Source of the DNA: Minisyncoccota bacterium
GTDB lineage: Bacteria; Patescibacteriota; Minisyncoccia; Phycocordibacterales; UBA9973
Reading direction: 5' to 3'
Length of the DNA stretch: 64,000 nt
Assembly: GCA_041662525.1 (NCBI GenBank)
Contig: JBAZSF010000001.1
Location: forward strand, 41,383 to 105,382
In this document: positions 12,834 to 49,681 of the stretch, piece by piece
Layout: every line of letters begins with the position of its first letter
How positions within the stretch are numbered: position 1 is the stretch's first letter
Program-made: the position numbers and the translations under genes
Notes under the pieces: model-generated
Database searches by the model: none
What the model was told of the DNA's origin: nothing
Seen by the model: the letters and a program-made list of their open reading frames with translations, nothing else

Positions 12834-13595
12834 ATGCAAATTCAAGTTGTCTTAAAAAATTTTGGTCTTTCAGAAAAAGAAATAGCAGTGTATTTGGCTT
12901 TAATAGAGCTCGGGTCTTCTTCAGTGCGAACTATATCCCAAAAAGCAAAAATAAATCGTGGTACTACTTATGATATTTTAAAATCCTTGATCAATCTTGG
13001 TATCATTTCCTATTACAATAAAGAATCAAAACAATATTTTATCGCTGAACGGCCGGAGACCTTGCTCGCAGTGATAGATAAAAAACAAGAAGAATTAAAA
13101 GAGGTTAAAGAAAATATTGAAGAAAACCTGCCTCTTTTTAAAACCATCTTTGAAAAACAAGGAGGTAAGCCAGTGGTGAAATTGTATGAGGGATTGATAG
13201 GTATCAGGCATATCTTGGAGGATGTATTGAAAAGTATGGATAGAGTAAAAGATAAGACTTACTATGTCTATTCTTCTTCAACGGTAAGAAAAAATGTGCA
13301 TCAGGCGATGAAAGATTTTAGTAAAAAAAGAATAAGGAGAAAAATCAAGGTAAAGACTATTGCTCTAGGTGAAGGAGGCGATACGGTGGGTCTTGATGAA
13401 AGAAAATGGATGGAATTACCAAATATGAAAGGGCAAGAAAATTTACGCTCTACGTATGAAATAATTTATGGCGGGAATAAAGTAGCGCATATCAGCCTCG
13501 ACAATGCAGAAAATCCAGTCGGGGTAGTGATAGAAAATCAAGAAATTTATCATACGCAAAAATTAATCTTTGAATATAATTGGAAAAAGTTGTAA
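12834..13595 (+). CDS. TrmB-family transcriptional regulator
   Basis: N-terminal winged HTH (LSEKEIAVYLALIELGSSSVRTISQKAKINRGTTYDILKSL) plus C-terminal TrmB-type domain; 253 aa. Confidence 0.7.
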   Translation: MQIQVVLKNFGLSEKEIAVYLALIELGSSSVRTISQKAKINRGTTYDILKSLINLGIISYYNKESKQYFIAERPETLLAVIDKKQEELKEVKENIEENLPLFKTIFEKQGGKPVVKLYEGLIGIRHILEDVLKSMDRVKDKTYYVYSSSTVRKNVHQAMKDFSKKRIRRKIKVKTIALGEGGDTVGLDERKWMELPNMKGQENLRSTYEIIYGGNKVAHISLDNAENPVGVVIENQEIYHTQKLIFEYNWKKL

Positions 13596-13644: not shown

Positions 13645-13899
13645 TTATTTTTTATTCTTTTTTTGCATTCTCTTCCATCGAGAAATTGCTCTTTGGGCCG
13701 CTGTTTCCTCAGAGAGGTAAACCGACCCCTCTGACTCCTTGTTTGTTTTAGGTACCAGGAAAGAAATCCTGACCCCTTTTATTGTCCTGGTTATTTTTAC
13801 TCCAGGTAGAACTCTCATAGCCTCCTTGGTTGCAGAACCCAATCTGAATAAATCTGTTTTCATAAAGAACCTCCTTCTAGATTTTTTAAAACCATACAA
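13645..13899 (-). CDS. small basic hypothetical protein
   Basis: 84-aa ORF with a K/R-rich C-terminus; no recognisable motif. Confidence 0.3.
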   Translation of the reverse strand: MYGFKKSRRRFFMKTDLFRLGSATKEAMRVLPGVKITRTIKGVRISFLVPKTNKESEGSVYLSEETAAQRAISRWKRMQKKNKK

Positions 13900-13979: not shown

Positions 13980-16967
13980 ATGATTTCCCGAATATATGTA
14001 GCGTCCAAAGGAAAAGCTGACTTTATTAACTCTTACTTAATTTCCCATAAGTTGGGGAATGACAAAATCCTGAAAATCGCGGAAGCTCTAACAAACCCTA
14101 TCCTTGAAGAATTTTCTATAAATAAATTCCCAGCGACAGCTAAATTTTCTTATGCCATAGAAATAGGTTTCAAGCCAGGAGTCACAGACAATGTCGGGCA
14201 TACTGTGGAGGAAACTATTATGGACTTATTGCATATTGCTCCGGACGTTGGACGTCGGGGATTCGGACGTCCAACGTCCGGAGCTGATTTAGCAGTTTAT
14301 ACTTCTAAAATTTATTTAGTTTCTAATTCTAAAACAGAAGAGGTTGAGAAGATAGCTCTCTCGCTACATAATCCTCTGATTGAGCGTTCACATATCATAA
14401 GTATTTCTGATTTAAAAAAGAAAGGTTTACCATTAGAAGTTCCTAAAGTCATTTTGAAAAAGGCTACCCCAGTCATAAATGTCTCTCTTGATGTATCTGA
14501 CGAAGAACTTATAAAAATCGGTAGTGGAGGAATAATGGATGATAAGACAAAAGAAAGACGCGGTCCTTTGGCTCTTGATTTAGCGTCAATGAAAGTAATC
14601 CAAGAACATTTCAAAAAATTGAAAAGGGAGCCGACTGATATTGAGCTAGAATCTTTGGCACAAACTTGGTCTGAGCATTGCAAACATACTATTTTTGCAA
14701 ATCCTATCGATGACATCAAAGACGGTTTATATAAAACATATATAAAAGGCGCAACGAATTTAATTCGCAAACAAAAAGGAGCAAAAGATTTTTGTGTTTC
14801 TGTATTTAGTGATAATTCTGGAGGAATTATTTTTGATAAGGATTATTTAATTACTCATAAAGTAGAAACACACAATAGTCCTTCAGCTCTAGATCCATTT
14901 GGTGGAGCCATCACTGGCATCGTAGGTGTAAACCGGGACACAATAGGCTTCGGACTAGGCGCTAAACCGGTAGCTAATCTTTATGGTTTTTGCTTCGGTA
15001 ACCCTGAAGATAAAAGATCACTCTTTCGTGATAAAAATCTAACTCAAAAAATGCTTTCACCGAAAAGAATTATGGAGGGTGTAGTAAAAGGAATAAATGT
15101 TGGTGGAAATTGTTCTGGTATACCGACTCTTTCTGGTTTCGTTCGTTATGATGATAGATATAGAGGAAAGCCTTTGGTTTTTGCTGGTACGGTAGGGTTG
15201 ATTCCAAGAAATTTACCAGCCTCACCGAGTCTAGGCGGGCCCACCTTGGAAGGAAAAAAAAGGCTTTCACATCTCAAAAAAGCGCAAAACGGAGATTATG
15301 TCGTAGTTGTCGGAGGGAGAGTAGGTCTAGATGGTATTCATGGGGCGACTTTTTCTTCAGTGGTGATGGATTCAAGTTCTCCGGCGACTGCAGTGCAAAT
15401 CGGTGACCCAATAACTCAGAAAAAATTAAGTGATGCATTAATCAAAGAAGCGCGAGATCTGAATTTATATAACAGCATCACAGACAATGGCGCTGGAGGA
15501 ATTTCTTGTTCAGTTGCTGAAATGGCAAAAGAATGTGGCGGTGCAAAAGTTTCTTTAGAAAAAGTTCCATTAAAATACCCCGATCTTCGTCCATGGGAAA
15601 TTTGGATTTCAGAATCACAGGAACGTATGACTTTATCTGTGCCAAAGAAAAAATGGAATTTATTTAAAGAATTAATGGAAAAGAGAGGAGTAGAAGCTAC
15701 TATCATTGGAGAATTCACAAATTCTGGTAAATGTATTGTGGAATATTCTAATAAAAAAATCATGGATATTCCTATGGATTTTTTGCATGATGGTTTGCCG
15801 GAACAGCATTTATATACAAAACCCATTCAATTCACCTCTCCCCAAACCCCTCTCCATTATTTAGATAATGGAGAGGGGAAAGCAAGGGGTGAGGATTATA
15901 CGAAAGCCTTAGAAAAATTACTCGGTAGTAAAAATATCAGTGGATTTTCTTTTATTTCAGAGCAGTATGATCACGAAGTTCAAGGATCTTCTGTTTTAAA
16001 ACCACTCTCTGGACGAGGTCGTATCAATACCGATGCACAAGTTTTTCAGCCTGTTTTAAATTCAAACAAAGGAGTCATTCTATCTTCGAGCACTTATCCT
16101 TCATATGGAGACATTAGTACTTATCATATGGCCGCCTGCGCTATCGATAATGCTATTAGAAATACTCTTTGCGCTGGTGGAACACTTACACACTTAGCAA
16201 TTTTGGACAATTTCTGCTGGTGTTCATCCTATGATCAAACACGTTTAGCACAGCTCGTAGATTCAGTAAAAGCTTGTTACGACTATGCCGTCGGTTATGG
16301 AACACCCTTTATTTCTGGTAAGGATAGTATGTTTAATGACTTTAGGGGTTACGATAGTGACGGTAACCATGTGACTGTTTCTATCCCACCGACACTTCTT
16401 ATTTCAACGATTAGTGTTATGCCCGATTTAAATAAAACTGTTTCTCCAGAATTTAAAAATATAGGTGATATAATTTATTTATTAGGAGAAACAAATGATG
16501 AACTCGGAGGAGGAGAATATCTTAAAATGCTTGGAGCTATTGGCAACATTGTGCCCAAAGTAAATTTAAAAAAGAATATCAAAACTTATCGCGCCCTAGA
16601 AAAAGCAATTCAAAAAGAATTAATAGTTTCGGCAATGTCTGTTAATTCTGGCGGGCTGGCTATAGCACTCGCCAAAGCATGCGTAGGAGGAATGGTTGGA
16701 TGTAATGTTTCCCTTGACCCCATAGGCAAGATCTATGGGGTAGATGTAAAACTTTTCTCTGAAAGTCAGGGAAGGATTTTAGTTTCTGTAAATCCTAAAA
16801 ATATTTTAGGATTTGAAAAATTAATGAAGAATATTTTTTATGCCAAGTTGGGCAAAGTGGCCAAAGATAGTAAATTTGTTATTACGGATGGAAATAAAAA
16901 GATAATTGAAACAAGTGTAAAAAAATTGCACGATGCTTATCATAAATTTTCTAACTCACAAAAATGA
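13980..16967 (+). CDS. purL: phosphoribosylformylglycinamidine synthase subunit PurL with ~180-aa N-terminal (PurS-like) extension
   Basis: REPTDIELESLAQTWSEHCKHTIF and THNSPSALDPFGGAITGIVGVNRD motifs. The FGAM-synthetase core starts at about residue 215. No glutaminase domain (a separate purQ follows). Confidence 0.9.
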   Translation: MISRIYVASKGKADFINSYLISHKLGNDKILKIAEALTNPILEEFSINKFPATAKFSYAIEIGFKPGVTDNVGHTVEETIMDLLHIAPDVGRRGFGRPTSGADLAVYTSKIYLVSNSKTEEVEKIALSLHNPLIERSHIISISDLKKKGLPLEVPKVILKKATPVINVSLDVSDEELIKIGSGGIMDDKTKERRGPLALDLASMKVIQEHFKKLKREPTDIELESLAQTWSEHCKHTIFANPIDDIKDGLYKTYIKGATNLIRKQKGAKDFCVSVFSDNSGGIIFDKDYLITHKVETHNSPSALDPFGGAITGIVGVNRDTIGFGLGAKPVANLYGFCFGNPEDKRSLFRDKNLTQKMLSPKRIMEGVVKGINVGGNCSGIPTLSGFVRYDDRYRGKPLVFAGTVGLIPRNLPASPSLGGPTLEGKKRLSHLKKAQNGDYVVVVGGRVGLDGIHGATFSSVVMDSSSPATAVQIGDPITQKKLSDALIKEARDLNLYNSITDNGAGGISCSVAEMAKECGGAKVSLEKVPLKYPDLRPWEIWISESQERMTLSVPKKKWNLFKELMEKRGVEATIIGEFTNSGKCIVEYSNKKIMDIPMDFLHDGLPEQHLYTKPIQFTSPQTPLHYLDNGEGKARGEDYTKALEKLLGSKNISGFSFISEQYDHEVQGSSVLKPLSGRGRINTDAQVFQPVLNSNKGVILSSSTYPSYGDISTYHMAACAIDNAIRNTLCAGGTLTHLAILDNFCWCSSYDQTRLAQLVDSVKACYDYAVGYGTPFISGKDSMFNDFRGYDSDGNHVTVSIPPTLLISTISVMPDLNKTVSPEFKNIGDIIYLLGETNDELGGGEYLKMLGAIGNIVPKVNLKKNIKTYRALEKAIQKELIVSAMSVNSGGLAIALAKACVGGMVGCNVSLDPIGKIYGVDVKLFSESQGRILVSVNPKNILGFEKLMKNIFYAKLGKVAKDSKFVITDGNKKIIETSVKKLHDAYHKFSNSQK
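14238..14284. repeat. 47-nt perfect GC-rich palindrome inserted in frame in purL
   Basis: gctccggacgttggacgtc-ggggattcg-gacgtccaacgtccggagc has a 19-bp perfect stem and encodes APDVGRRGFGRPTSGA within the N-terminal domain. Confidence 0.7.
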
Positions 16968-18748
16968 AAACAGAAACTAAACCACATTCGACAGGCTCAG
17001 TGTCTACAACCTGCCAAAACTGTAAAGAAGACTTCGTTATTGAACCGGAGGATTTTAATTTCTACGAAAAAATGAAAGTTCCAGCTCCGACTTTTTGCCC
17101 TCTTTGTCGAGCAGAGAGGAGGTTTGCTTTTAGAAACGAACGTAAACTTTTTAAGGTAAAAGATACTTTTACTGGTAAAGAAATTTTTTCATTATACCCA
17201 GAAGAAAGTGGCAGAAAAATTATTACTCAAGAAGAGTGGTATGGGGATGGCTGGGATGCGATGGAATATGCCCGCGAATATGATTTTTCTCGACCGTTTT
17301 TCGAGCAATTTTTTGAACTTCAAAGAGAAGTGCCTATTTACAATCTAAATGTACAAAGAATGATTAATAGTCCATATTCTGGAAACGCTACAGCGTTAAA
17401 AAACTGTTACCTCTGTTTTCATTCTAATTATACTGAAGATAGTATGTATGGCAGTGCGAATGATCATTGCAAAGATTGCGTGGATAATTCTCACATTCAA
17501 TATTCAGAACGATGTTATGAATGTTTTTGGTTAGAAAAATGTTATCAATGTTATTTTTCTATAATGTGTGGAGAATCACACAATCTTTTTTTATGTCGTA
17601 ATTGTTTAGGATGCAATGATTGTTTTGGCTGCGCAAATTTACGCAAATCCTCTTACTGTATTTTCAATAAGCAATATTCTAAAGAAAATTATTTTAAAGA
17701 AATAGAAAGTATGAAATTGAATACTATTTTCGGCTTAAAAAAAATGCGAGGTAAAGCTAGAGCCTTTTGGTTAACTCAGCCAACAAAATCTCAACATGGT
17801 CTTAAAAATTTAAATTCAACAGGTTCTCATGTTACACATTGTAAAAATGTGAATGATAGTTTTTTGATCAGAGGAAGTGAAAATATGCGTTACTGCCAAC
17901 ATATGCAAGTACCTGCGAATAAAGATTGCTATGATGTTTCTAATTGGGGAGAAAATACAGAACTTTCTTATGAGACTTTAGTGTGTGGTGAAAATGCCTA
18001 CAACATGAAATTTAGTTTCAATTGCTGGCCGACATGCACGGACAGTGAATACTGCATGGATCTCTTTAGTTGCTCAGATTGTTTTGGCTGTGTGGGTTTA
18101 AAGAAAAAACAATATTGTATTTTCAATAAACAATATACTAAAGAAGAATACTATCAGATAATAGAAAAAATTAAAAAACAAATGGATGATATTCCTTATA
18201 CTGACAAGCAAGGTCTTATTTATAAGTACGGAGAATTTTTCCCAATAGAATTTTCTCAGTCTGGATATAATAATACTGTCGCAATTCAACATTTCCCACT
18301 TACGAAAACAGAAGCAGAAAAAAAGGGATACCTATGGGTAGAAGCGCCCCAGAGTGAATATAGAATTACTATTAAATCATCCGAACTTCCGAATTCTATT
18401 CCTGAAGAAAATGAAATTTTAAAAGAAATTATAGAATGCGAGAATTGTAAAAAAGCTTATCGGATAATGGAAAATGAATTAATTTTTTTGCGTAAAGAAA
18501 ATCTGCCTCTGCCTGATTTGTGTCATGATTGCAGATATGATAGAAGAATAAAGGATAGACTATCGATCAGATCGTATGACCAATCTTGCATGTGCGGAGG
18601 AACTTTAGACGAAACTGGAATTTATAAAAATACCGTTAAACATCTCCATGCAGATGAACCGTGCGGAGAGAAATTTAAAACTGGACACGCTCCAGAAAAT
18701 AAAGAGATAGTTTATTGTGAAAAATGTTATCAACAAGAAGTTTACTAG
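16964..18748 (+). CDS. cysteine-rich multi-zinc-ribbon-like protein of unknown function (594 aa); paralog of 47951..49681
   Basis: ATGA start/stop overlap with purL. About 50 Cys arranged mostly as CxxC pairs. N- and C-terminal C-x2-C...CP-x-CR ribbons; two internal ~170-aa repeats ending YCIFNKQY(S/T)KEEY; CRNCLGCNDCFGC run. Confidence 0.75.
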   Translation: MKTETKPHSTGSVSTTCQNCKEDFVIEPEDFNFYEKMKVPAPTFCPLCRAERRFAFRNERKLFKVKDTFTGKEIFSLYPEESGRKIITQEEWYGDGWDAMEYAREYDFSRPFFEQFFELQREVPIYNLNVQRMINSPYSGNATALKNCYLCFHSNYTEDSMYGSANDHCKDCVDNSHIQYSERCYECFWLEKCYQCYFSIMCGESHNLFLCRNCLGCNDCFGCANLRKSSYCIFNKQYSKENYFKEIESMKLNTIFGLKKMRGKARAFWLTQPTKSQHGLKNLNSTGSHVTHCKNVNDSFLIRGSENMRYCQHMQVPANKDCYDVSNWGENTELSYETLVCGENAYNMKFSFNCWPTCTDSEYCMDLFSCSDCFGCVGLKKKQYCIFNKQYTKEEYYQIIEKIKKQMDDIPYTDKQGLIYKYGEFFPIEFSQSGYNNTVAIQHFPLTKTEAEKKGYLWVEAPQSEYRITIKSSELPNSIPEENEILKEIIECENCKKAYRIMENELIFLRKENLPLPDLCHDCRYDRRIKDRLSIRSYDQSCMCGGTLDETGIYKNTVKHLHADEPCGEKFKTGHAPENKEIVYCEKCYQQEVY

Positions 18749-18795
18749 CGTCGCGCTTTGATGGACGATTGCGCGACATGATTTCGTAAAATCAA
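18749..18795. repeat. conserved hairpin element GTCGCGC-(14)-GCGCGAC + CATGATTTCGTAAAATCAA immediately 5' of the purQ ATG; homolog at 33583
   Basis: Near-identical 45-nt element also precedes mrdA, with a compensatory T-A to C-G change in the stem. Confidence 0.65.
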
Positions 18796-19551
18796 ATGAA
18801 AAAAATAAAACCAAAAATAATAATAATGTCGGGATATGGACTTAATTGTGAAGAAGAAACAAAGTTTGCTTTTGAAAAAGTCGGAGGGCTTGCAGACATT
18901 GTACACATTAATGACTTAATTACTAAACCTAAAATACTTTCGGAATATAAAATATTAGTTTTCCCAGGGGGATTTTCTTTTGGAGATGATACTGGTAGTG
19001 GAAAAGCGTATGCAAATAAATTTAAAAATCATTTAGCGAAAGAATTAACTGAATTTCTATCACGTGATACTCTTACTATTGGAATCTGTAATGGATTTCA
19101 AATAATAACTAATCTAGGAATTTTACCCGGAGGGCTTACTTATAATAAAAATGGGCAATATATAGATAGATGGGTTGACTTAGAAGCAAAAGGAAACAGT
19201 CCTTGGCTCCAAGGGGTTAAAAAAATATCACTACCTATAGCGCACGGTGAAGGACACTACGTAATTTCTCAAAAAGAATACCTAAAAATGAAACAAAATA
19301 AGGAAATTGCTTTTATTTATACAAATGGAGAAATATGTAAGTTTCAAAACCTCGAGAAAAATCCAAACGGATCAGAACATGACATTGCGGGAGTTTTAGC
19401 ATATAATGGCAGAGTGCTCGGCATGATGCCACATCCAGAAAGAGCCATGTTTTCACATCAAAGTCCTACGTGGCAACTAAATAAAAAGGTTTCAAAAGAT
19501 GGAGTAGGATTACAGATTTTTAAAAACGGTATTAATTATTTTAAAAAATAA
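18796..19551 (+). CDS. purQ: phosphoribosylformylglycinamidine synthase subunit PurQ (glutaminase)
   Basis: GICNGFQI catalytic Cys; HGEGHY...MMPHPER triad region. Confidence 0.9.
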   Translation: MKKIKPKIIIMSGYGLNCEEETKFAFEKVGGLADIVHINDLITKPKILSEYKILVFPGGFSFGDDTGSGKAYANKFKNHLAKELTEFLSRDTLTIGICNGFQIITNLGILPGGLTYNKNGQYIDRWVDLEAKGNSPWLQGVKKISLPIAHGEGHYVISQKEYLKMKQNKEIAFIYTNGEICKFQNLEKNPNGSEHDIAGVLAYNGRVLGMMPHPERAMFSHQSPTWQLNKKVSKDGVGLQIFKNGINYFKK

Positions 19552-19553: not shown

Positions 19554-20951
19554 ATGAGTGAGCTAAAAGAAAAATGTGGGATCGTAGGAATATACGGCAA
19601 GAATTTGCCTATTTCCAGATTGGCATTTTTTGCTTTATTTGCACTACAACATAGGGGGCAAGAAGCATCAGGAATTACTACAAATGATGGTAAAAAATTT
19701 CGTACCCACAAAGGCGCAGGACTCGTATCTCAGGTGTACACAGAAAAAACAATAAAAAAATTGACGGGACATATCGCTATTGGGCACAACAGATATTCTA
19801 CTTCAAAAGGCGGAGCCTTAAATCACGCTCAACCAGTTGTAAATAACGATAAATCTTTTGCCCTAGCGCACAATGGTAATTTACCAAGCACAAAAGCATT
19901 AGAAAATTTTCTTTCTTCAAAAAAAGTATTGAAAAAAGACCGTAATGATTCGGAACTCATGGCTGATGCGATTGATTTTTATATCAAAGAAGGTAATTCA
20001 ATTTCAAAATCTGTAGAAAAATCTTTTCCTTTATTTACTGGGGCTTTTTCATTAGTAATGATGACTAAGGATACCTTGGTCGCTGTGCGTGATGCTTATG
20101 GAATGCGCCCACTTGCCATAGGCAAGCTGGAAAAAGGTTATGTTGTTGCTTCAGAAACATGCGCTCTACAAACTGTCGGTGCAATATTTTTGAGAGAAGT
20201 AAAACCCGGAGAAATGATTGTTATAAATAAGAATGGTCTAAAAAGTATCCAATTAGCACCACCCAATCCGAAGCACGACATATTTGAATATGTTTATTTC
20301 GCTAGACCGGACAGTGTACTAAATGGTAAATTGATTTATGAAGTAAGGAGAAATTTTGGGAAAGTTCTCGCTCAAGAATTTAAGAAGAAAGTTGATATTA
20401 TCGTACCTGTCCCTGATACAGCTATGCCGGTAGCTATAGGATATAGTCAGACTTCAGGTATTCCAATGGAAATGGCTTTAGTGAAAAATCGCTATGTCCA
20501 TAGAACTTTTATCGAACCTGATCAAAAATCCAGGCGGAATAGTGTGGCGCTCAAACTCATACCTCTACCTCAAATTTTGAAAGGTAAAAAAATAATAGTA
20601 ATAGATGATTCTATTGTAAGGGGACACACTTGCAGAAAATTAGTTAAAACACTTTTTAAATCAGGCGCCAAAGAAGTGCATCTTTTGATTTCTTCTCCAC
20701 CAGTCCGCTTTCCAGATTTTTACGGTATGGATACTCCAAATCAAGATGAATTAATTGCGTCTTATAAAACTATAGAAGAAGTTCGTAAATTCATGGGTGC
20801 TACATCACTGCACTATCTTTCACTCGATGGATTGATAAAGGCCATTGGTCTACCAAAAGATAAATTATCTACTTCCTGCTTTACAGGTATTTATCCTATA
20901 GATTTAAAAGAACGCAGAGAGGAAGTGGATTATAATATTTCAAAGGAATAA
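19554..20951 (+). CDS. purF: amidophosphoribosyltransferase
   Basis: N-terminal MxxxCGIVGIYG (Ntn Cys) and PRTase domain; 465 aa. Confidence 0.9.
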   Translation: MSELKEKCGIVGIYGKNLPISRLAFFALFALQHRGQEASGITTNDGKKFRTHKGAGLVSQVYTEKTIKKLTGHIAIGHNRYSTSKGGALNHAQPVVNNDKSFALAHNGNLPSTKALENFLSSKKVLKKDRNDSELMADAIDFYIKEGNSISKSVEKSFPLFTGAFSLVMMTKDTLVAVRDAYGMRPLAIGKLEKGYVVASETCALQTVGAIFLREVKPGEMIVINKNGLKSIQLAPPNPKHDIFEYVYFARPDSVLNGKLIYEVRRNFGKVLAQEFKKKVDIIVPVPDTAMPVAIGYSQTSGIPMEMALVKNRYVHRTFIEPDQKSRRNSVALKLIPLPQILKGKKIIVIDDSIVRGHTCRKLVKTLFKSGAKEVHLLISSPPVRFPDFYGMDTPNQDELIASYKTIEEVRKFMGATSLHYLSLDGLIKAIGLPKDKLSTSCFTGIYPIDLKERREEVDYNISKE

Positions 20952-20964: not shown

Positions 20965-21585
20965 ATGAAAAAAAAATTAGCAATATTAATTTCGAATGCT
21001 GGTACCGGCACTAACCTAAAAGCCATTATCGATGGAATTAATTCTGGGGTAATTAATGCCGAAATTTGCGCAGTTATTTCAGATACTGTAAATGCAAAAG
21101 GTCTAGAACACGCTAGAGCAAATAATTTAAAAGTCGAAATTTGTGAAAATAAAGAAAACCTATTGCCACTTTTGCAAAAATTAAATCCCAGTGAAGACTT
21201 AATGTATATTTGTTTAGCAGGTTGGAAACAAATTATCACAGATGAGGTGATTCTTGCTTTTCCAAATAAGATTTTAAACCTACACCCTGGATTAATCCCT
21301 GATACAACTAATGAAAATGTTAAAAATCCAGACGGAACGGAAGCCCTGTGGAATAAAGGCATGATGACCAATAAAGCAATTAAAAATTTCTTTGATCTAA
21401 AAGCTACTTTTGCTGGTTCAAGTATTCATTTTTTAACCTTAAATTTTGATTTTGGGCTAGTTTTAGGAAGAACTTTTGAGAAAATTGAAGAGGATGACGA
21501 TGTTGAGTCATTGTATTCAAGATTAAAGGCAAAAGAGAATCATTTGTATATAGAAGTTTTAGAAAAATTGTGTCAAAATGAATAA
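20965..21585 (+). CDS. purN: phosphoribosylglycinamide formyltransferase
   Basis: LAILISNAGTGTNLKAII ... NLHPGLIPD motif. Confidence 0.85.
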   Translation: MKKKLAILISNAGTGTNLKAIIDGINSGVINAEICAVISDTVNAKGLEHARANNLKVEICENKENLLPLLQKLNPSEDLMYICLAGWKQIITDEVILAFPNKILNLHPGLIPDTTNENVKNPDGTEALWNKGMMTNKAIKNFFDLKATFAGSSIHFLTLNFDFGLVLGRTFEKIEEDDDVESLYSRLKAKENHLYIEVLEKLCQNE

Positions 21586-22870
21586 CATGCAAAAAATATT
21601 AATAATTGGGGCTGGAGGAAGAGAGCATGCAATCGGATGGAAAGTAGCACAATCGCGGAACGCTGGGCAGATTTTTTTTGCTCCTGGAAATGGTGGCACA
21701 AGTAATATTGGAATTAATGTAGACCTAAAGGCAACTGATATTTCAGGGCTGTTAGAATTTGCCAAAAAAGAAAAAATTGATTTAACCTTGGCTTTACCCG
21801 ATGATCCGCTTGCTCTTGGTATCGTGGATGAATTTAAAAAAAATAATTTGCGTATTTTCGGTCCGACAAAACAAGCTAGTAAAATCGAATGGTCAAAAGC
21901 TTTTTCAAAAGATTTTATGCATCGACATAATTTGCCGACAGCGAAATTTGAAATATTTGATAATTTTGAAAAAGCAAAAGAATATGTTTCAAAACAATCT
22001 TTACCTATAGTTATCAAAGCAAGCGGTTTAGCTTTAGGTAAAGGTGTAATAATTTGCCAAAACTTAGAGGAAGCAAATGAGGCCCTAGAAAATATGTTTA
22101 TAAAAAAAGTTTTTGGGGATGCTGGTAATGAGGTGGTGGTAGAAGAGTTCCTCATTGGTCCAGAAATTTCTATTCATGCATTTTCAGATGAGAAAAATTA
22201 TAAAATGTTTCCGACTTCTCAGGATCATAAAAAGATAGGGGAAAATGATACTGGACTGAATACTGGCGGAATGGGTACGATAGCCCCACTTCCTTTTGTA
22301 ACAAATGAACTTTTAGAAAAGATTGAAAAAGATATTGTTGTTCCGACCGTGCATTCAATGGAGAAAGACGGAAATCCTTTTTTAGGTGTGATATACCCAG
22401 GACTAATACTCACAAAAGATGGTCCTAAGATTCTTGAATATAATGCGCGTTTTGGTGATCCAGAAACTCAAACTTATATGAGACTTTTAGATACAGATAT
22501 TTTGGATATTTTCAATTCATGTATTGATGGAAAACTTGATCAAATAGAAATAAATTGGAGCAAAAAATCTGCTTGCACCATAGTATTAGCTTCTGGAGGG
22601 TATCCAGAAAATTACGATAAAGGGAAGATAATTTCAGGAATTTCTGAAGCAGAAATGCAACCTGATATCGTTGTTTTTCATGCTGGTACAAAAATAAAAA
22701 ATGACGAACTTGTCACTAGTGGCGGGCGAGTACTAGGAATTACCGCCACAGGAGATACCCTAGAAGAAGCCCTTGCAAAAGCTTATAAAGCCATAGAAAA
22801 AATTTCATTTGAAGGAATGCAATATAGAAAAGACATCGGCCAGGGTGCATTAAAAATAAAAAATATTTAA
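21578..22870 (+). CDS. purD: phosphoribosylamine--glycine ligase
   Basis: ILIIGAGGREHAIGWKVAQS N-terminus and ATP-grasp core; 8-nt overlap with purN. Confidence 0.9.
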   Translation: MNNMQKILIIGAGGREHAIGWKVAQSRNAGQIFFAPGNGGTSNIGINVDLKATDISGLLEFAKKEKIDLTLALPDDPLALGIVDEFKKNNLRIFGPTKQASKIEWSKAFSKDFMHRHNLPTAKFEIFDNFEKAKEYVSKQSLPIVIKASGLALGKGVIICQNLEEANEALENMFIKKVFGDAGNEVVVEEFLIGPEISIHAFSDEKNYKMFPTSQDHKKIGENDTGLNTGGMGTIAPLPFVTNELLEKIEKDIVVPTVHSMEKDGNPFLGVIYPGLILTKDGPKILEYNARFGDPETQTYMRLLDTDILDIFNSCIDGKLDQIEINWSKKSACTIVLASGGYPENYDKGKIISGISEAEMQPDIVVFHAGTKIKNDELVTSGGRVLGITATGDTLEEALAKAYKAIEKISFEGMQYRKDIGQGALKIKNI

Positions 22871-24204
22871 TTATCCCAATTGAAGAATTGCTCTCTGTCT
22901 GGGCCGGTGCCGACGGAGATAATTTTTACATTCAGATCAGAGAGTTTATTTTTAATGTATTTTAAATAAGAAACAAGCTCTTTGGAAACTTTCTTTTTGT
23001 TATTTACTCCAGAATTTTTTTCTCCCCAACCATGAATATTTTCGGTCATCACATCTGTAACTTCATTTAAGTAAAGTGGAAATTCTTTTAGAATTTTTGT
23101 TTTGTTTTTCTCTTTAACTTTATACCCAGTCACTACTTTTATTTTATCACTCAAGCAAATATCAGCTTTATTAATGAAAATTCTATTGGCCCCCGATAGG
23201 GTAATAGCGTAACGCAAAGCAAATAAATCAAGCCAACCGCACATTCGTGGTCGTCCAGTCGTCGCTCCAAATTCTTGTCCTGCGTCTTGGAAAAGTTTTT
23301 CCAGAGCCGGATCTTTTATTCTAGCAGGAAAGCTTCCACCGCCTACTTTTGTCGTATAAGCTTTTATTACGCCATATATATTCCGTAAATAAGTATGAGG
23401 TACACCCAAGCCCAAGCAAACATTGGCTGGTAGGGTATTACTACTGGTGACATTAGGATAATCACCAAAATCAATATCCAGCATCACCGCCTGCGCACCT
23501 TCCGCTAAAATGTTTTTTCCTTCTTTTAATCTTTTTTGTATCAAAGATGCTAAGTCACAAATCTTCAATTTTTTAATTTCTTTTACTGCATTCAACCATT
23601 TTTCTTTAGCTTCTTTTATTTTTTTTATATCAATTTCAAAACCATATTTTTCTTTATACATATTTAAAAGATTCATATGAAATTCTGACAAAATAAACTC
23701 TTTCTTTTCAAAATCTGACAACAATATATCACCGATTAAAAACCCTCTCCTGTTTCGCACATCACCATAAGCAGGACCTATACCCCTAGATGTCGTACCT
23801 ACCTTGGTCCCCAGCTTGCCTCGGCGATGTTCTTCTGCTTGATCTAAAAAAGGATGTAAGTATGAAACTAACTTTGCCCGATTGGAAATAAAAAGACGGG
23901 GGGAGACATTGAACCCTAAATTTTTTAATTGCGATATTTCTGAAACTAAAGACAGGGCATCAACTACGACACCATTGCCAATATATAATTCTATATTTTT
24001 ATGAAGACAACCAGAAGGGATAATATGTCCGATAAAAGTGGTATTGCCTAATTTTAAAGTATGTCCTGCATTGGCTCCTCCTTGAAAACGTGCAACTCCA
24101 GAATAAATACCGTGGGATAAAAGTTGATCTATGTTTTTACCTTTTCCTTCATCTCCCCACTGAAGACCCACGACAACATCAATAAAACCATTTTTTTTAT
24201 TCAT
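22867..24204 (-). CDS. purA: adenylosuccinate synthetase
   Basis: VVVGLQWGDEGKGK P-loop and GNTTFIGHIIP motifs. Confidence 0.9.
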   Translation of the reverse strand: MNKKNGFIDVVVGLQWGDEGKGKNIDQLLSHGIYSGVARFQGGANAGHTLKLGNTTFIGHIIPSGCLHKNIELYIGNGVVVDALSLVSEISQLKNLGFNVSPRLFISNRAKLVSYLHPFLDQAEEHRRGKLGTKVGTTSRGIGPAYGDVRNRRGFLIGDILLSDFEKKEFILSEFHMNLLNMYKEKYGFEIDIKKIKEAKEKWLNAVKEIKKLKICDLASLIQKRLKEGKNILAEGAQAVMLDIDFGDYPNVTSSNTLPANVCLGLGVPHTYLRNIYGVIKAYTTKVGGGSFPARIKDPALEKLFQDAGQEFGATTGRPRMCGWLDLFALRYAITLSGANRIFINKADICLSDKIKVVTGYKVKEKNKTKILKEFPLYLNEVTDVMTENIHGWGEKNSGVNNKKKVSKELVSYLKYIKNKLSDLNVKIISVGTGPDREQFFNWDN

Positions 24205-24215
24205 AAAAAAATAAA

Positions 24216-25730
24216 TTACTGTCCAATACTATAGTTAGGGGACTCTTTAGTAATTGCAACATCATGAGGATGGCTTTCTTTTATGCCGGAATTAGTAATT
24301 TTAACAAATCTTGCATTATCTTGAAGAGTTTTTATGTTGGGTGTTCCACAATACCCCATACCAGCTCGAAGACCTCCGACGAGCTGATAAATCACTTCTG
24401 ATAAAACACCCTTAAAAGAAACTCTACCGACTATCCCTTCCGGTACAAGTTTTTTAATATCTTCTTCCATGTCTTGAAAATATCTGTCTTTAGAGCCGAG
24501 CTGCATAGCTTCAATAGAACCCATACCACGATAAGTTTTATATTTTCTAGATTCAAAAATAATTATTTCACCAGGAGATTCTTCAACTCCAGCAAAGAGG
24601 GAACCAGCCATTACAGAACTAGCTCCGGCGGCTATAGCTTTAGTAATATCTCCCGTATATCTAATACCTCCATCAGCAATAATAGGTACGCCAGAACCTT
24701 TTATGGCTTCCGCCACCTCATACACTGCAGAAAATTGAGGATAACCTACGCCAGTGATTATTCGAGTAGTACAAATCGATCCTGGCCCAATACCGACTTT
24801 TACGGCATCTGCTCCAGCTTTCACTAAAGCCAAAGCTGCATCTGCTGTAGCAATATTTCCCGCGATTACTTCTAATTGAGGAAATACTTTTTTTATTTTT
24901 TTTAACATTTCGATCACCCCTTTTGAATGACCATGAGCAGTATCAATAGCCACCACATCTACTCCATTTTGCACTAATGCTTGGACTCTTTCCAAGGTGT
25001 CATTTGATATCCCAACTGCCGCACCCACACGCAGACGACCTAAATTATCTCTAGAAGATTTCGGACGAGATTTTACTTTCATAATATCTTTGTAGGTAAT
25101 GAGACCGATAAGTTTATTTTTACTATCAACTAGTGGTAATTTTTCAACTTTGTATTCTGTTAATATCTTTTCAGCTTCTTTTAGATCGGTACGAATATTT
25201 CCAGTTATTAAATTTTCTTTAGTCATTATTTCACCTACCGAAAGTTCTAAATTTTTCTGAAATCGAAGATCCCGATTAGTTAAAATTCCTTTTAATTCCA
25301 TATTTTCATCAACAATTGGAATTCCACCGATCTTATTTTCTTCCATAATAGAAAGAGCTTCGCTCAATAAAGATTCTTCTGTTAGGGTTATGGGGTCATG
25401 GATCATTCCACTTTCGGAACGCTTAACCTTACGCACCTCGGCTGCCTGTTTTTCAATATTCATATTCTTATGAATAATTCCTATGCCTCCTTCTTGGGCC
25501 ATCGCTATAGCCATCGCACTTTCAGTGACCATATCCATGGCGGCAGAGACAAGAGGAACACTAAGTGTTATTTTTTTAGTCAGCTTTGAAGAAATATCAA
25601 CGTCACGAGGTAAAGTTTCGGAGTATTGTGGCACAAGCAAGACATCATCATAAGCCAAACCTTCTTTGAAGTTTTCGTTAAATTTTTTATTTCTATTTAT
25701 TACTTTATTTATTTTTACTTTCAAAGCCAT
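24216..25730 (-). CDS. guaB: IMP dehydrogenase
   Basis: [11 protein letters not shown], tandem CBS domains, catalytic loop [11 protein letters not shown]. Confidence 0.9.
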
Positions 25731-25746
25731 AATATATCGTGTATAC

Positions 25747-27321
25747 TACCATATTATGAATGATATACAAATACTTGTTGTGGACTATGGGTCGCAATAT
25801 ACACTAGTTATCGGCAGAACTCTACGCGAGCTTGGTGTGCGAAGCATAATATTACCTCCAAATAAAGCAGACCAGTGGCTAAAAAATAATACTCCAAAGG
25901 CAGTTATCCTCTCTGGTAGTAATTGGAGCGTACACAACGAAGGAGCACCAAGTATTCCTCAGGCACTCGATACTACTGGTAGAAAATATTTAATTTTAGG
26001 AATTTGTTATGGTATGCAACTTCTAGCGCACAAGAATGGTGGCAAAGTAGAACGACCACTCGATCATCGTGAATATGGACCAGCCATGGTTACCTTAAAC
26101 ACCTTGCATCCGCTTTTTAAGGGAATTTCTAAAAAAACCCAAGTCTGGGCAAGTCACGGGGATACTGTAACCAAGCTTCCAAAAGATTTTGTTTCCATAG
26201 CTACGTCCGGCGGAAATGCTGCCATGAGCGACAAAACTAATAGTGTTCTAGGAATTCAATTTCATCCAGAAGTTGTGGACACCAATGAAGGTAAAAAAAT
26301 ATTACAGAATTTTTTGAATATGGCTAATTGTAAAAAAGATTGGAATCCCATAAATTTGATTCACGAAATTCAAAAAGAAGTTTTAGAAATTGTAGGAGAA
26401 AAACCCGCCTCGACTCGCGGAGGCTCGTCGACGCGAGGCGGGGATAAAGTTATTTTAGGAGTTTCAGGCGGAGTGGATTCTACTACTTTAGCTGCTGTCT
26501 TGGCTCCAGTCTTAGGGAGTAGGCTCGTTTGTGTGGCTATAGACACTGGAGGATTAAGACAAAATGAATTAGTAGAATTAAAAAATAATAGTAAAAACGC
26601 TGGCATAAAAAATCTTATAATAATTTCTGCTGAAACTGAATTTATAAAAAATATTGAAAAAACTATTGACGGAGAAGAGAAGAGAGCAAAATTTCGTACT
26701 GTTTATAAAAAAATATTTGAAGAACAAATAAAAAAAACGGGTGCAAAGTTTATAGTGCAAGGTACTTTGGCAACAGATATCATTGAAAGCGGTAAAGCAG
26801 GAGAGTCAGCCATGATAAAAACTCACCACAACGTAGGCCTTAACTGGAAAGTAGAGGATTTACATCCTTTTCGCAACTTATTTAAATATGAAGTTCGAGA
26901 ACTTGCTCGTGCACTCAAACTTCCAAAAGCTATCTCTGAGCGGAATCCTTTTCCAGGTCCTGGTTTATTTTTAAGAATTGTTGGTACACCGGTCTCAAAA
27001 GAAAAACTGGACCTCGTACGAGAAGCAGACAAAACCGTAGCGAATATATTAAAAAAATATGATGTTGCTAAAGACATTTCCCAACTCATCGTCGCCCTTC
27101 TCGGTGTCAATTCTGTCGGCGTAAAAGGTGATGAACGGGTTTATGGTCACTCCTTGGCTATCCGTGCCGTACAAACAGTAGATTTTATGACAGCTAAAGG
27201 TTATTATTTTTCGGAAGAAATTATAAATGAAATCACCAACTCTCTCACAAAACACAAAAACATAGTTCGTGTATTTTTTGATATGACTCCAAAACCTCCG
27301 GCCACAACAGAGTTTGAGTAA
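25747..27321 (+). CDS. guaA: GMP synthase (glutamine-hydrolysing)
   Basis: ILVVDYGSQYT GATase start, SGGVDSTTLA PP-loop. Start chosen at Met 25747 rather than the ORF-track 25666, which would overlap guaB. Confidence 0.9.
   Translation, partial: YHIMNDIQILVVDYGSQYTLVIGRTLRELGVRSIILPPNKADQWLKNNTPKAVILSGSNWSVHNEGAPSIPQALDTTGRKYLILGICYGMQLLAHKNGGKVERPLDHREYGPAMVTLNTLHPLFKGISKKTQVWASHGDTVTKLPKDFVSIATSGGNAAMSDKTNSVLGIQFHPEVVDTNEGKKILQNFLNMANCKKDWNPINLIHEIQKEVLEIVGEKPASTRGGSSTRGGDKVILGVSGGVDSTTLAAVLAPVLGSRLVCVAIDTGGLRQNELVELKNNSKNAGIKNLIIISAETEFIKNIEKTIDGEEKRAKFRTVYKKIFEEQIKKTGAKFIVQGTLATDIIESGKAGESAMIKTHHNVGLNWKVEDLHPFRNLFKYEVRELARALKLPKAISERNPFPGPGLFLRIVGTPVSKEKLDLVREADKTVANILKKYDVAKDISQLIVALLGVNSVGVKGDERVYGHSLAIRAVQTVDFMTAKGYYFSEEIINEITNSLTKHKNIVRVFFDMTPKPPATTEFE
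26404..26442. repeat. GC-rich palindromic element inserted in frame in guaA
   Basis: cccgcctcg-actcgcggaggctcgtcgacg-cgaggcggg (9-bp outer stem) encoding KPASTRGGSSTRGGDK. It lies between the GATase and ATP-PPase domains and is related to the dnaX element. Confidence 0.65.
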
Positions 27322-27352
27322 TATGCTATAATTTCTTTTCAAATATAAATTC

Positions 27353-28852: not shown

Positions 28853-28863
28853 TTATTGTAAGA

Positions 28864-28892
28864 TTGACAGTTTATTCTAGGATATGTATATT
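28864..28892 (+). promoter_or_regulatory. near-consensus sigma70 promoter TTGACA-17-TATATT
   Basis: ttgacagtttattctaggatatgtatatt upstream of ORF 28978, which has the strong SD AGGGAGG. Confidence 0.5.
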
Positions 28893-28977
28893 GTAAATGA
28901 ATACATTAAGGGTACATTGCTGGGGTTTGCTAAAACAAATCCTTTTGACAAACAATATTTAACCAGGGAGGTTTCAG

Positions 28978-29358
28978 ATGAAAGATCAGATGGAAAATGA
29001 AGGTTATTCTTATTTTAAGCATACCTCAATACGTGAGTTATGCAATTTACTGGCAGTAAACGATGAAATGCCGATTCTCGACAAATCTTTGATGATACTA
29101 TTTTCTTCAGTATCAACGAGTAGCCTAGATTCGGATTTTGGAATACTCCTTAACCTTCACAAAAAATGCAAAAAGCATTTTGAAAAACTTTTAGGAATGA
29201 GAGGATCATTCTTCGAAGGTTTTATTTTGTTTATCAAATCAGAAAAGGAGGGAATGCTCGTCGGCATAGGAACCGATGAGAGGTTCTATGCTATTGCAGC
29301 ATGGGATAGCTATGAGTGTGATCTCTGGGAACCAGAAGAGATCATACACTATAATTAA
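28978..29358 (+). CDS. hypothetical protein (126 aa)
   Basis: Own promoter and SD, and terminated by a hairpin; no recognisable motif. Confidence 0.45.
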   Translation: MKDQMENEGYSYFKHTSIRELCNLLAVNDEMPILDKSLMILFSSVSTSSLDSDFGILLNLHKKCKKHFEKLLGMRGSFFEGFILFIKSEKEGMLVGIGTDERFYAIAAWDSYECDLWEPEEIIHYN

Positions 29359-29378
29359 TAACAGGTGAGACTATCGAA

Positions 29379-29424
29379 AGGCCAGCATGCTCCGGGAGGA
29401 AGTGTGCTGGCCTAATTTGTTTTA
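29379..29424 (+). terminator. rho-independent terminator
   Basis: aggccagca-(17)-tgctggcct followed by aatttgtttta. Confidence 0.6.
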
Positions 29425-29449
29425 TATTAAAAAAATGATAAGATAAAAT

Positions 29450-29968
29450 ATGGAAAAAAAATCTATTGTCGGCATAGTGATGGGGTCAGACTCAGATTTG
29501 GAGGTAATGGCAGAAACAGCGAAAGTTCTCGAAGAATTTAATGTACCCTATGAAATGACTGTGGCTTCTGCACACCGCAGCCCTGAATTAGTGCACAAAT
29601 ACACAACTAGTGCAAAAGCTCGAGGACTCAAAATGATCATAGCTGGAGCAGGAGGGGCAGCACATCTAGCAGGGGTTATTGCATCCCTCACAACCCTGCC
29701 TGTTGTTGGTGTACCTATTAAAACAAAAAATTTAGACGGCCTTGATTCAATTCTTTCTACTATCAATATGCCTCCAGGAATTCCAGTCGCAACCGTAGGG
29801 ATTAATTCTGCCAAAAATGCTGGGTTGTTAGCTGTTACCATCCTTGCCCTAAATGATAAAAATTTAGAAAAGAAATTAGTTACCTATAAAAATAAAATGA
29901 AGATTGAGGTTAAAATAAAAGGAGAAAAACTTTTAAAAATTGGATATAAAAAATATTTAAATAAATAA
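29450..29968 (+). CDS. purE: 5-(carboxyamino)imidazole ribonucleotide mutase
   Basis: VGIVMGSDSDL...ASAHRSPE...IAGAGGAAHLAG. Confidence 0.9.
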   Translation: MEKKSIVGIVMGSDSDLEVMAETAKVLEEFNVPYEMTVASAHRSPELVHKYTTSAKARGLKMIIAGAGGAAHLAGVIASLTTLPVVGVPIKTKNLDGLDSILSTINMPPGIPVATVGINSAKNAGLLAVTILALNDKNLEKKLVTYKNKMKIEVKIKGEKLLKIGYKKYLNK

Positions 29969-47950: not shown

Positions 47951-49681
47951 TTAATAAACTTCTTGTTGGTAACACTTCTCGCAATAAACAATCTCTGGCC
48001 TTTCTGGGGCATAACTGGTCTCAAATTCTACTTCACATTTTTTGGTGCCGTGCGTATGATTTTCTTTATTGCACATACACTCTCTGCGCCAGAGTTTGCT
48101 GGGTCCTCTATTTTTAAAACGTTTAAGATGACGGCACTCAGGACAGTTACGTGGTATTGGTATTTGCATTCTTTTATAAAAAGCTAACTCATCTACAATA
48201 ACTCGATAATTTTTATTGCATTCCATGCATGCAAAAACCTCCTTATTTACATCAAAATCAGAAGATAATTCTAAAATGGAATCTGGGAAAGTTTTCCAAT
48301 CAATAGTTTCCTTGCCATATGTCCCACGCGGAGTATCTTCCCATTTGAAACCCTGCGCTAATGCTTCTTCTTTTGTTAGTGGAAATTCGTCCATAACCGA
48401 AGACTCATTATAGCCAAACGGAGATAATTCTTTTGGAAAAAAATCTCCGTAAATCCCCTCTTGTTTCATTTTTTCTACAATTTCTGCTTGGAGTTTTTCA
48501 TATTCTTCTTTAGAATACTGTTTATTTAAAATACAATAAGAACCTTTTATTAAACCAACACATCCAAAACAATTATTAGAATTCGGGCAATTTAAACAAT
48601 ATTCCATAAATTGTGAGCCCCAGCAATATTGAGAGCAAGTAACATTTGATGCTTCAAGCCCGGTATTTAGAGTATTATAAATCAATTCTGCCGTGCGCCC
48701 TGCAGTATTGCAATCCATACAATCTTTTGCCCCGCGCCAAACATGCATGGAATAAGCATTGTCTTCTGCGTCATAAGAATGAAAACACTGACGATTATTT
48801 TTGACGTTCGTCATATAATTTCCCGTAGAATTTACGGCATTAAAAATTTCAGCAAATTTTCTAGGTTTGTCTTTTATAAAATTTTGAAATTCTTTTTTAA
48901 AATTTTTCATACCCGAATGTGTGTCTAATTTAAAAGATTTTAATTTATTTTCATATTCTTCTTTGGTGTATGGTTCATCAAAAATACAATACTTTTGTCC
49001 CCGTAAATTTATACAACCCAAACAATTTGAGCAATTTCGGCAATCAAGAAGAAAGGAACTGTCAAGACAGCTATGGCATCCTTTGGAAAATCGTAAATTA
49101 TTACAGTCATAACAATCATCAACTTCGTACGATAGTTCTACTTTATTCGTAAAAGAACAATCGACTAGATCTTTTGAAAGCTGAATCCAATAACAATTGA
49201 TGCAATTCTCATTATTTGAGCTTTCTATGATCACATAACAGTTTTTATTATCAGCCGTATAATTTAAGTAATAACAATTTACATTTCTTAAGCCAGTCAA
49301 AGCTGGTTTTGGAACTTTTTTCCAAAGTTCACTAAACTGCTTAAAGAAAGATTCATTAGAATTATAATTTTGAGCATATTTATTAGCATTTAGGTCATCA
49401 CCATACCAACAATTAGAACACCAACTAGGGTAAGTTTTATTTGGACTAAAAATTGAAATTGTATCTTTTTTACAATTATCACAAATACGCTTGTAAAAAC
49501 ATCTTTCATTTTTAAAACAAAGTCGAAGTTGCATTCGACATTCTGGACAATTTTTAGGTGGCAATACTCCAATCTTTTCATAAAATCCAAAATCATCCGG
49601 CTCAATCGTGAAGTTTTTTTGACAACTTTGGCAAGTAGTAGGCACTGAGTCTTGCGAATGTGTTTTAGTTTGTACTTCCAT
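47951..49681 (-). CDS. cysteine-rich multi-zinc-ribbon-like protein of unknown function (576 aa); paralog of 16964..18748
   Basis: Same architecture as 16964..18748 and an identical C-terminal EIVYCEKCYQQEVY; 17-nt overlap with scpB. Confidence 0.75.
   Translation of the reverse strand: MEVQTKTHSQDSVPTTCQSCQKNFTIEPDDFGFYEKIGVLPPKNCPECRMQLRLCFKNERCFYKRICDNCKKDTISIFSPNKTYPSWCSNCWYGDDLNANKYAQNYNSNESFFKQFSELWKKVPKPALTGLRNVNCYYLNYTADNKNCYVIIESSNNENCINCYWIQLSKDLVDCSFTNKVELSYEVDDCYDCNNLRFSKGCHSCLDSSFLLDCRNCSNCLGCINLRGQKYCIFDEPYTKEEYENKLKSFKLDTHSGMKNFKKEFQNFIKDKPRKFAEIFNAVNSTGNYMTNVKNNRQCFHSYDAEDNAYSMHVWRGAKDCMDCNTAGRTAELIYNTLNTGLEASNVTCSQYCWGSQFMEYCLNCPNSNNCFGCVGLIKGSYCILNKQYSKEEYEKLQAEIVEKMKQEGIYGDFFPKELSPFGYNESSVMDEFPLTKEEALAQGFKWEDTPRGTYGKETIDWKTFPDSILELSSDFDVNKEVFACMECNKNYRVIVDELAFYKRMQIPIPRNCPECRHLKRFKNRGPSKLWRRECMCNKENHTHGTKKCEVEFETSYAPERPEIVYCEKCYQQEVY

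Follow-up and report, generated by a model that had tools for sequence, protein, structure and literature searches.

We analysed a stretch of 64,000 nucleotides (nt) from a Minisyncoccota bacterium (GenBank assembly GCA_041662525.1, contig JBAZSF010000001.1, positions 41,383 to 105,382 of the forward strand), referred to below as the window. It carries a string of purine biosynthesis genes in which a large Cys-rich gene, here called X, stands between purL and purQ; a second member of the same family in the window is called X2. The gene order was obtained from a map of open reading frames (ORFs) together with Pfam and NCBIfam domain scans. These bear out a preliminary description of the DNA in giving purL, a Cys-rich ORF of 594 amino acids (aa) and then purQ-purF-purN-purD, and in placing an ATGA overlap between the purL stop and the X start at 16964-16967. 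The principal features are:

13980..16967, + strand: purL, formylglycinamidine ribonucleotide (FGAM) synthetase II, 995 aa, long fused type (Pfam AIRS, AIRS_C and FGAR-AT_linker; NCBIfam TIGR01736, E = 3.5e-149)
16964..16967, + strand: ATGA overlap of the purL stop (TGA) and the X start (ATG), from the sequence
16964..18748, + strand: X, 594 aa, Cys-rich, subfamily A of a Paceibacteria-specific paralogous family
18749..18795, + strand: spacer of 47 nt from X to purQ, with a hairpin at 18750-18777
18796..19551, + strand: purQ (GATase_5, E = 2.9e-69; TIGR01737)
19554-20951, + strand: purF (domain scans)
20965-21585, + strand: purN (domain scans)
21578-22870, + strand: purD (domain scans)
47951..49681, - strand: X2, 576 aa, 37% identical to X, its start overlapping the scpB stop in an scpA-scpB-X2 string

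X is probably a functional zinc-binding paralogue of subfamily A, lodged in a slot whose occupant can be exchanged, and with a role that is not specific to FGAM synthetase.

To compare the junction in relatives, the window PurL was searched against one genome per species. This gave 80 loci (numbered L001 and so on, as are the other loci below), and occupancy was counted in 42 informative Paceibacteria loci and in 34 loci of other Candidate Phyla Radiation (CPR) or DPANN lineages. Among the 42, purL and purQ adjoin directly in 27, typically through ATGA as in the window or through TAATATG; 13 hold one or two family members at the junction and 2 hold unrelated genes only. The junction is free of the family in all 34 loci of the other lineages. 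Three further loci combine a direct purL-purQ junction with a family copy after purF. Extra unrelated cargo accompanies the family in 2 of the 13 occupied loci (a pyroglutamyl peptidase and a low-molecular-weight phosphatase in one, a methyltransferase-like gene and a PemK/MazF toxin in another). In 46 Paceibacteria pur loci, each of the 17 family ORFs immediately follows purL or purF, and the 205 kb upstream of purL contain none. The family favours the pur string as a location, this junction above all.

The genes found at the junction differ widely. In the family tree (all trees were made by neighbour joining only) they fall into at least six deep subfamilies, 35-45% identical to each other: clade A (the window, L001, L006 and L005), clade B (seven loci), clade C (three) and clades D, E and F (one each), with B and C in tandem in the slot of L019. 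The clade-A hosts form a monophyletic group in the PurL tree, where clade-B hosts are interspersed with genomes that have a direct junction. The final 30 nt of purL, with the ATGA, are identical in loci occupied by A, B or D and in direct loci. The nearest outgroup to clade A is formed by L167 and L168 (PurL 75%), whose slot gene belongs to clade B and is only 36% identical to X.

This outgroup shares part of the window's spacer. The 3' 38 nt of the spacer, up to the purQ start, are identical in L167/L168 (38/38), with two mismatches in the left arm of the stem. The window-type spacer is absent or different in L001, L006 and L005, and was not found elsewhere among 174 loci beyond L167/L168. 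It had been described as a conserved 47-nt hairpin element. Its length is indeed exactly 47 nt and a perfect 7-bp stem (GTCGCGC/GCGCGAC) is present at 18750-18777, but the hairpin is statistically unremarkable (minimum free energy -16 kcal/mol, z = -1.16 against shuffles) and the stem is not kept in L167/L168. That the sequence is kept in L167 without the stem hints at some role other than that of a hairpin. An intrinsic terminator was rejected since no U-tract follows the GC stem, and the hairpin is absent from the terminator scan. We also rejected a family-associated element of the attC or repetitive extragenic palindromic (REP) type, since the hairpin is found once only in the window and is not enriched after family genes (p = 0.43). 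The 3' part of the spacer (18771-18795) can in addition be read as two tiny overlapping ORFs before purQ, ATGGACGATTGCGCGACATGA (MDDCAT*) and ATGATTTCGTAA (MIS*).

X itself is a functional gene. Its ratio of non-synonymous to synonymous substitution (dN/dS) is 0.08-0.12 in comparisons with L001, L006 and L005, and that of the pur genes is 0.03-0.17. With a ratio of about 0.1, X is under purifying selection as strong as that acting on the pur enzymes.

The family to which X belongs is very large, restricted to Paceibacteria (CPR bacteria) and present in several copies per genome. A word-indexed search with X returned at least 7,994 matches, the best 120 of them 65-82% identical and about 586 aa long, and an exhaustive HMMER scan found at least 3,624 clusters at 50% identity, 1,362 of them below E = 1e-30. 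Members are about 560-600 aa in length. Source names, where informative, are Candidatus Paceibacterota or Nomurabacteria, apart from isolated mislabelled bins named Rickettsiales or Burkholderiales. The subfamilies of X, of X2 and B each include at least 120 close members (approximately 58-87% identity), and contigs common to several match lists indicate that single genomes hold several subfamilies. No matches to the family were obtained in IMG/VR viral contigs, INPHARED phages or PLSDB plasmids, and a viral, phage or plasmid origin was rejected on these grounds. Literature searches on the Cys-rich family returned nothing relevant; it is undescribed in the searchable literature and is without a characterised homologue.

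To see the family in its usual surroundings, 80 metagenomic loci were fetched with the family profile, irrespective of pur genes; in these loci, as in the others, genes were called by a simple longest-ORF rule. They contain 170 family ORFs in 714 kb, often in adjacent co-oriented runs (L117, for example, has seven copies, up to four of them adjacent). About 80% of the genes flanking family ORFs are co-oriented with them, with short gaps or overlaps. No pur genes occur in any of the 80 loci. Some copies in the arrays are split in two ORFs or internally deleted (L003 4472-6166; L149 7989-9767; L135 3255-5044; L037 2664-3890) and are probably pseudogenes or assembly errors. Inteins or introns in family genes were considered and rejected: the tblastn matches spanning 2.2-2.6 kb that raised this idea are tandem copies joined by the tool.

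The commonest neighbour in these loci is a P-loop ATPase of the TrwB/TraG/DUF87 type, resembling the type IV coupling proteins (T4CPs). Of 161 immediate neighbours, 28 are of this kind; 18 of the 28 stand directly upstream, often at a distance of 1-3 nt. The family loci contain 37 such genes in 714 kb and the Paceibacteria pur loci none in 538 kb. They are found directly upstream of family arrays in L087, L095, L098, L100, L105, L110, L141, L148, L161, L162 and others. The ATPases have a Walker A motif, no transmembrane segment and two size classes, of which the longer, of about 700 aa, carries a CxxC-x17-CxxC treble-clef finger and a Pro-rich tail. Rarer neighbours of the family include CutA1, phosphoglycerate kinase, NYN, ArsR-type helix-turn-helix (HTH), PaaX/Cas2-like and PemK/MazF genes.

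The X protein contains 39 Cys and 14 His, and its alignment-based AlphaFold2 (AF2) model is of high confidence, with a pLDDT of 84.9 and a pTM of 0.88. Zinc ribbon, linker, two duplicated Cys-rich modules, alpha/beta region, second zinc ribbon and Cys/His tail follow one another along the chain. The parts below were delimited with hhalign and from invariant columns, the ribbons being predicted zinc-binding domains:

16982..17008, + strand: 9-aa insert PHSTGSVST ('THSTSSVQA'-type), in about 3% of family members and several subfamilies
17012..17134, + strand: N-terminal zinc ribbon, C17 C20 C45 C48, zf_Tbcl-like (invariant Cys; hhalign; homologue matches to PF13451/PF23477; BFVD matches)
17381..17704, + strand: Cys-rich module 1, aa 140-247, ending in C.GC.NLR...YCIFNKQY.KE.Y (hhalign)
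17825..18163, + strand: Cys-rich module 2, aa 288-400, an internal duplicate of module 1 (hhalign)
18437..18559, + strand: C-terminal zinc ribbon, C492 C495 C520 C523 (invariant Cys; hhalign)
18587..18727, + strand: C-terminal Cys/His cluster, C542 C544 H560 H562 C567 C585 C588 (invariant columns)

The two modules align with each other at an hhalign probability of 99.7% (E = 1e-26), and the N- and C-terminal ribbons are likewise homologous (99.1%). The N-terminal ribbon follows the pattern CxxC..F.I...DF.FYEK..VP.P..CP.CR..RR, and the Cys/His cluster ends in the family signature YCEKCYQQEVY. In each ribbon two CxxC pairs lie about 24 residues apart. These eight Cys, with four C-terminal Cys, are invariant across 114 sequences from two subfamilies; many central Cys vary between subfamilies, and the polar residues D174, D324, N388, Y243 and W458 are invariant in the same set. 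X is predicted to bind zinc. No hydrophobic segment was detected in X, which is for that reason predicted to be a cytosolic protein.

Database comparisons add little. X has no match in Pfam, NCBIfam, PADLOC, PDB sequences or PDB folds (Foldseek), the fold comparison covering PDB and BFVD. Without a Pfam or NCBIfam match it has no homology to PurS, PurQ or PurL, and Pfam, NCBIfam and PHROGs together with Foldseek against PDB showed no nuclease, transposase or recombinase domain. PADLOC models of known anti-phage defence systems matched neither X nor X2 (0 families at E <= 1), and Pfam and NCBIfam likewise yielded nothing of use for X2. The single PHROGs match to X and X2, phrog_15341 at E = 0.005, is itself of unknown function and not significant. 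For the 450-aa core of X, the duplicated modules included, no counterpart was found among Pfam or NCBIfam models, PDB sequences or PDB folds. As to the ribbons, X itself does not match PF13451 or PF23477 at E <= 0.01; homologues at 35-40% identity have precomputed matches to them, some weak or faint, and the BFVD fold matches are 'putative zinc-ribbon domain proteins'.

The short insert was also seen elsewhere. It is 8-9 aa long, has the consensus (K/R)THSTSSVQA and directly precedes the first Cys of the zinc ribbon; of 685 family members, only 20 carry it. Both window copies have it (X at 16982-17008; X2 at 49615-49641, minus strand), as do L125 (twice in tandem), L141, L112, L048, L080 and L033. 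Gene conversion, mini-insertion, or an ancestral feature lost many times are candidate origins.

The shared spacer bears directly on the history of the slot. Since it stands behind a clade-B gene in L167/L168, the most economical interpretation makes the slot, with its borders, older than the gene that now fills it. A would have taken the place of B within the slot in the window lineage, the purL ATGA and the downstream spacer being retained. We propose that the slot arose in an ancestor of a Nomurabacteria-like clade, precisely at the point where purL and purQ overlap in ATGA. Several fates may then have followed: vertical inheritance in the window's clade (window, L001, L006, L005), in-place exchange of the occupant among deeply diverged paralogues, enlargement by a second copy or by unrelated cargo (including the PemK toxin), and precise emptying in many lineages. 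The occupant start (ATGAAAAC) and the purQ start (ATGAAAAA) have a common microhomology, ATGAAAA. Together with the conserved gene ends it could mediate insertion, exchange and a precise deletion that restores purL-ATGA-purQ, and we infer that exchange and precise loss took this route. In the slot X would lack a promoter and a terminator of its own, and presumably depends on transcription of the pur operon and on translational coupling to purL.

Several points weigh against this account. DNA identity at the gene ends of distant paralogues is only about 0.6-0.68 compared with 0.51 overall, an enrichment so modest that strongly conserved gene-end DNA was rejected as an obvious recombination substrate. 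Part of the pattern would also follow, with no exchange at all, from differential loss out of an ancestral tandem array. Placement on the pur side is non-random (17 family ORFs after purL or purF and none upstream, with at least 9 subfamily placements), and selection for co-expression with pur genes may account for this. Finally, no T4CP-like gene lies within the 64 kb of the window, so that a partnership with the ATPases is invisible at X and X2.

The preliminary description had offered two explanations of X, namely an accessory or assembly factor of PurL/PurQ or a selfish insertion tolerated by the operon. In a wider form of the former, X would serve FGAM synthetase or the purine pathway as an accessory, assembly or regulatory factor, and would keep its place between purL and purQ because the proteins are thereby made in step. 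Presumed translational coupling to purL through the ATGA fits this, as do the presence of a family member at the exact junction in about 31% of Paceibacteria pur operons (with 3 more after purF and none upstream) and the conservation of the arrangement, at a dN/dS of about 0.1, in the window's clade. Comparison of the purL-purQ junctions, however, which the same description had put forward as the check, speaks against it: PurL and PurQ of the same kind do without X, at direct or family-free junctions, in 27/42 close and 34/34 distant relatives. The slot moreover holds members of six or more paralogue clades that share only 35-45% identity, and on occasion unrelated cargo; the same subfamilies recur in mur, scpAB, holB-frr and grpE-dnaK contexts. 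Orthologues of the X subfamily (67-72% identical) are found outside pur operons in L002, as a tandem pair beside cytidylyltransferase-family (CTP_transf_like) and glycoside hydrolase genes, and in L003, where grpE and dnaK flank a series of family copies, one of them broken into two ORFs. Clade B was rejected as a dedicated pur-specific paralogue since, in four look-ups, two members lie at purL|purQ and two between mur ligase genes. With pur genes also missing from all 80 family loci sampled without regard to them, an FGAM synthetase-specific role of X is unlikely, and we regard the wider reading as a purine factor of any of these kinds as very improbable. X2 (47951-49681, -), which overlaps scpB (49665-50258; scpA at 50255-50983), again stands behind the genes of two subunits of one complex; an X2 orthologue, 79% identical, lies behind holB rather than scpB in another genome.

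The idea of a selfish insertion comes closer to the evidence as far as insertion is concerned. Selfishness itself fits poorly with purifying selection, the lack of a mobility or nuclease domain, and conserved subfamilies; what was inserted is a conserved gene of the cell, in a slot open to exchange, and is neither decaying nor demonstrably selfish. In its strongest form the idea makes the family a self-mobile selfish gene that inserts co-directionally at gene boundaries of conserved operons. Patchy occurrence among close relatives with precise ATGA boundaries, many copies per genome, orthologues at 70-80% identity in unrelated positions and frequent PemK/MazF, NYN, PaaX/Cas2-like, recombinase and IS200 neighbours could all be accommodated in this way, and conserved acidic residues could form an active site. 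Yet Pfam and NCBIfam reveal no domain of a nuclease, transposase or integrase, the viral, phage and plasmid collections contain no member, and a search for terminal repeats or target-site duplication around the insert revealed nothing beyond a microhomology of 7-9 nt (ATGAAAA at the occupant and purQ starts). Deep, stable orthologous subfamilies that diverge at the rate of host enzymes, and head-to-tail arrays of diverged paralogues, are also atypical of mobile elements, and we judge self-mobility improbable. Still less credence is due to a family devoted mainly to metal handling (buffering, storage or chaperoning of zinc or another divalent metal) with its operon position incidental. The 39 Cys and 14 His per copy, with several copies per small genome, and the CutA1 (8 times) and ArsR/SmtB-type HTH (4 times) neighbours would suit it. 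These neighbours, however, make up only 12 of 161, many central Cys are unconserved between subfamilies while non-Cys polar residues (D174, D324, N388, Y243, W458) are invariant, and a 590-aa multi-domain architecture maintained at 65-80% within subfamilies favours specific interactions over bulk chelation.

The preferred reading, a cellular paralogue in an exchangeable slot, leaves room for a function tied to the T4CP-like ATPases. Given their frequent position just upstream of family genes, the likeliest function that we can suggest for the family, although on balance a doubtful one, is that of zinc-stabilised adaptors or clients of these enzymes. A 2025 survey counted 5,713 VirD4-type T4CP homologues in Patescibacteria, only 148 of them near virB4, and raised the possibility of exaptation (PMC12102498). 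The family-linked ATPases may be these unexplained orphan homologues, with the Cys-rich family as their candidate partner. In a broader and more speculative form, which we consider rather unlikely as a whole, the family and orphan soluble T4CP/HerA-like ATPases would constitute an undescribed Paceibacteria-wide system. The ATPase would act on a repertoire of zinc-stabilised paralogues, promoterless members of which would sit in exchangeable slots of housekeeping operons (pur, mur, scpAB, grpE-dnaK) and be swapped by recombination between paralogues. If this were true, cassette exchange would couple different paralogues to different core pathways.

The consequences for purine biology are small, the FGAM synthetase genes working without X in most relatives. 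They are larger for the CPR/Patescibacteria, whose very small genomes keep several copies of an undescribed 1.7-kb gene in subfamilies conserved like core enzymes. The orphan T4CP homologues, possibly exapted (PMC12102498), gain a candidate partner. In addition, an in-place swap of deep paralogues at a fixed operon boundary would be an unusual mode of operon evolution, one that existing genomes can test.

The surrounding purine genes provided some further observations. In the window they are split (22867-33311), with purA and guaB on the minus strand, guaA and another ORF between purD and purE. The remaining features of the region are:

12834..13595, + strand: TrmB-family HTH regulator, upstream of purL (Pfam)
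29450-29968: purE, beyond the purA/guaB/guaA interruption
29970-31010: purM, after purE
31025-31960: purC, after purM

The TrmB-family HTH gene (12834-13595) is 93-96% identical in L001, L005 and L006, where it is conserved beyond every pur enzyme save PurF of L001 (equal, 96%), and was seen in clade-A loci only. It is a candidate pur regulator. In L167/L172, purN and purD are fused in one ORF of 633-653 aa, followed directly by purE-purM-purC (L167 9865-13665). The PurS-like N-terminal extension attributed to PurL is weakly supported by a sub-threshold Pfam PurS match (E = 0.017), and the 84-aa minus-strand ORF at 13645-13899, which has no PurS match, was ruled out as PurS. Long fused-type PurL with the purL-purQ order also occurs, at 54-57% identity, in DPANN archaea (L058, L059, L065-L067, L073, L077, L083; Aenigmatarchaeota, Iainarchaeum, Nanoarchaeota and Woesearchaeota). 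Their PurLs are intermixed with those of CPR bacteria in the PurL tree, which suggests that the pur operon may have been transferred between domains.

GC-rich, nested palindromic mini-elements lie in frame within the purL coding sequence (window 15821-15890 and 14238-14284), and others were seen in L005 (6830 and 9779), L006 (6827), L007 (1851), L014 (4793 and 7644) and L003 (17367). One form, CACCTC.CCCC..CCCCTCTCC-loop-GGAGAGGGG..GGGGTGAGG, is found at one and the same place within purL in five loci, those of the window and of four relatives. Copies of this CACCTC type are also intergenic, including in the spacer between occupant and purQ in L005 and L014. The second purL element is a perfect 19-nt inverted repeat in the N-terminal region of purL. 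As in-frame, GC-rich nested palindromes, the mini-elements are reminiscent of the Rickettsia palindromic elements.

Among known domains, the closest to the X ribbons are zf_Tbcl and zf_Tbcl_2 (PF13451 and PF23477; 'probable treble-clef zinc finger', or 'zinc-ribbon domain containing protein' at NCBI). Like them, both ends of X have a CxxC-(24)-CxxC ribbon with the signature F.I...DF.FYEK...P.P..C..CR..RR. Unlike X, zf_Tbcl domains are only 35-50 aa long and of no known function, and would cover less than 15% of X. The central modules recall the Cys-rich beta-helix repeats of insect antifreeze type (PF02420) in their ..C..C.. periodicity of about 11 residues and in the little regular secondary structure of the AF2 model, and a few clade-B members have precomputed PF02420 matches. 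These are sporadic and weak, with none in X, and X differs further in being predicted as cytosolic, with no signal peptide and no Foldseek match in PDB.

At the level of gene organisation, PurS, PurQ and PurL form the FGAM synthetase complex encoded by operons of the Bacillus/Thermotoga type. X resembles their components in being encoded between two subunits of that complex and, presumably, translationally coupled to them. It differs in not being homologous to PurS, PurQ or PurL and in that most relatives join purL and purQ directly by ATGA; in contrast to those components, most members of the Cys-rich family lie in loci that have no pur genes. Free-standing homing endonuclease genes, which in phage genomes are wedged between conserved genes, are similar in their patchy presence, their precise co-oriented insertion at the boundaries of conserved genes and their multiple sites per genome. 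The X family, on the other hand, has no HNH, GIY-YIG or LAGLIDADG domain, was not found in the viral, phage and plasmid collections, and forms stable subfamilies under strong purifying selection and in tandem arrays. A further parallel is provided by T4CPs (VirD4/TraG) with adjacent tandem substrate genes, for example the Bartonella virD4-bep locus. As there, an ATPase, here of the TrwB/TraG/DUF87 type, often immediately precedes the family arrays, 1-3 nt separating the genes. In contrast to virD4-bep, the family-linked ATPases have no transmembrane anchor or adjacent type IV secretion genes, the 64 kb that contain X and X2 include no such ATPase, and the family proteins, unlike the virD4-bep substrates, appear to be zinc-rich, folded and cytosolic.

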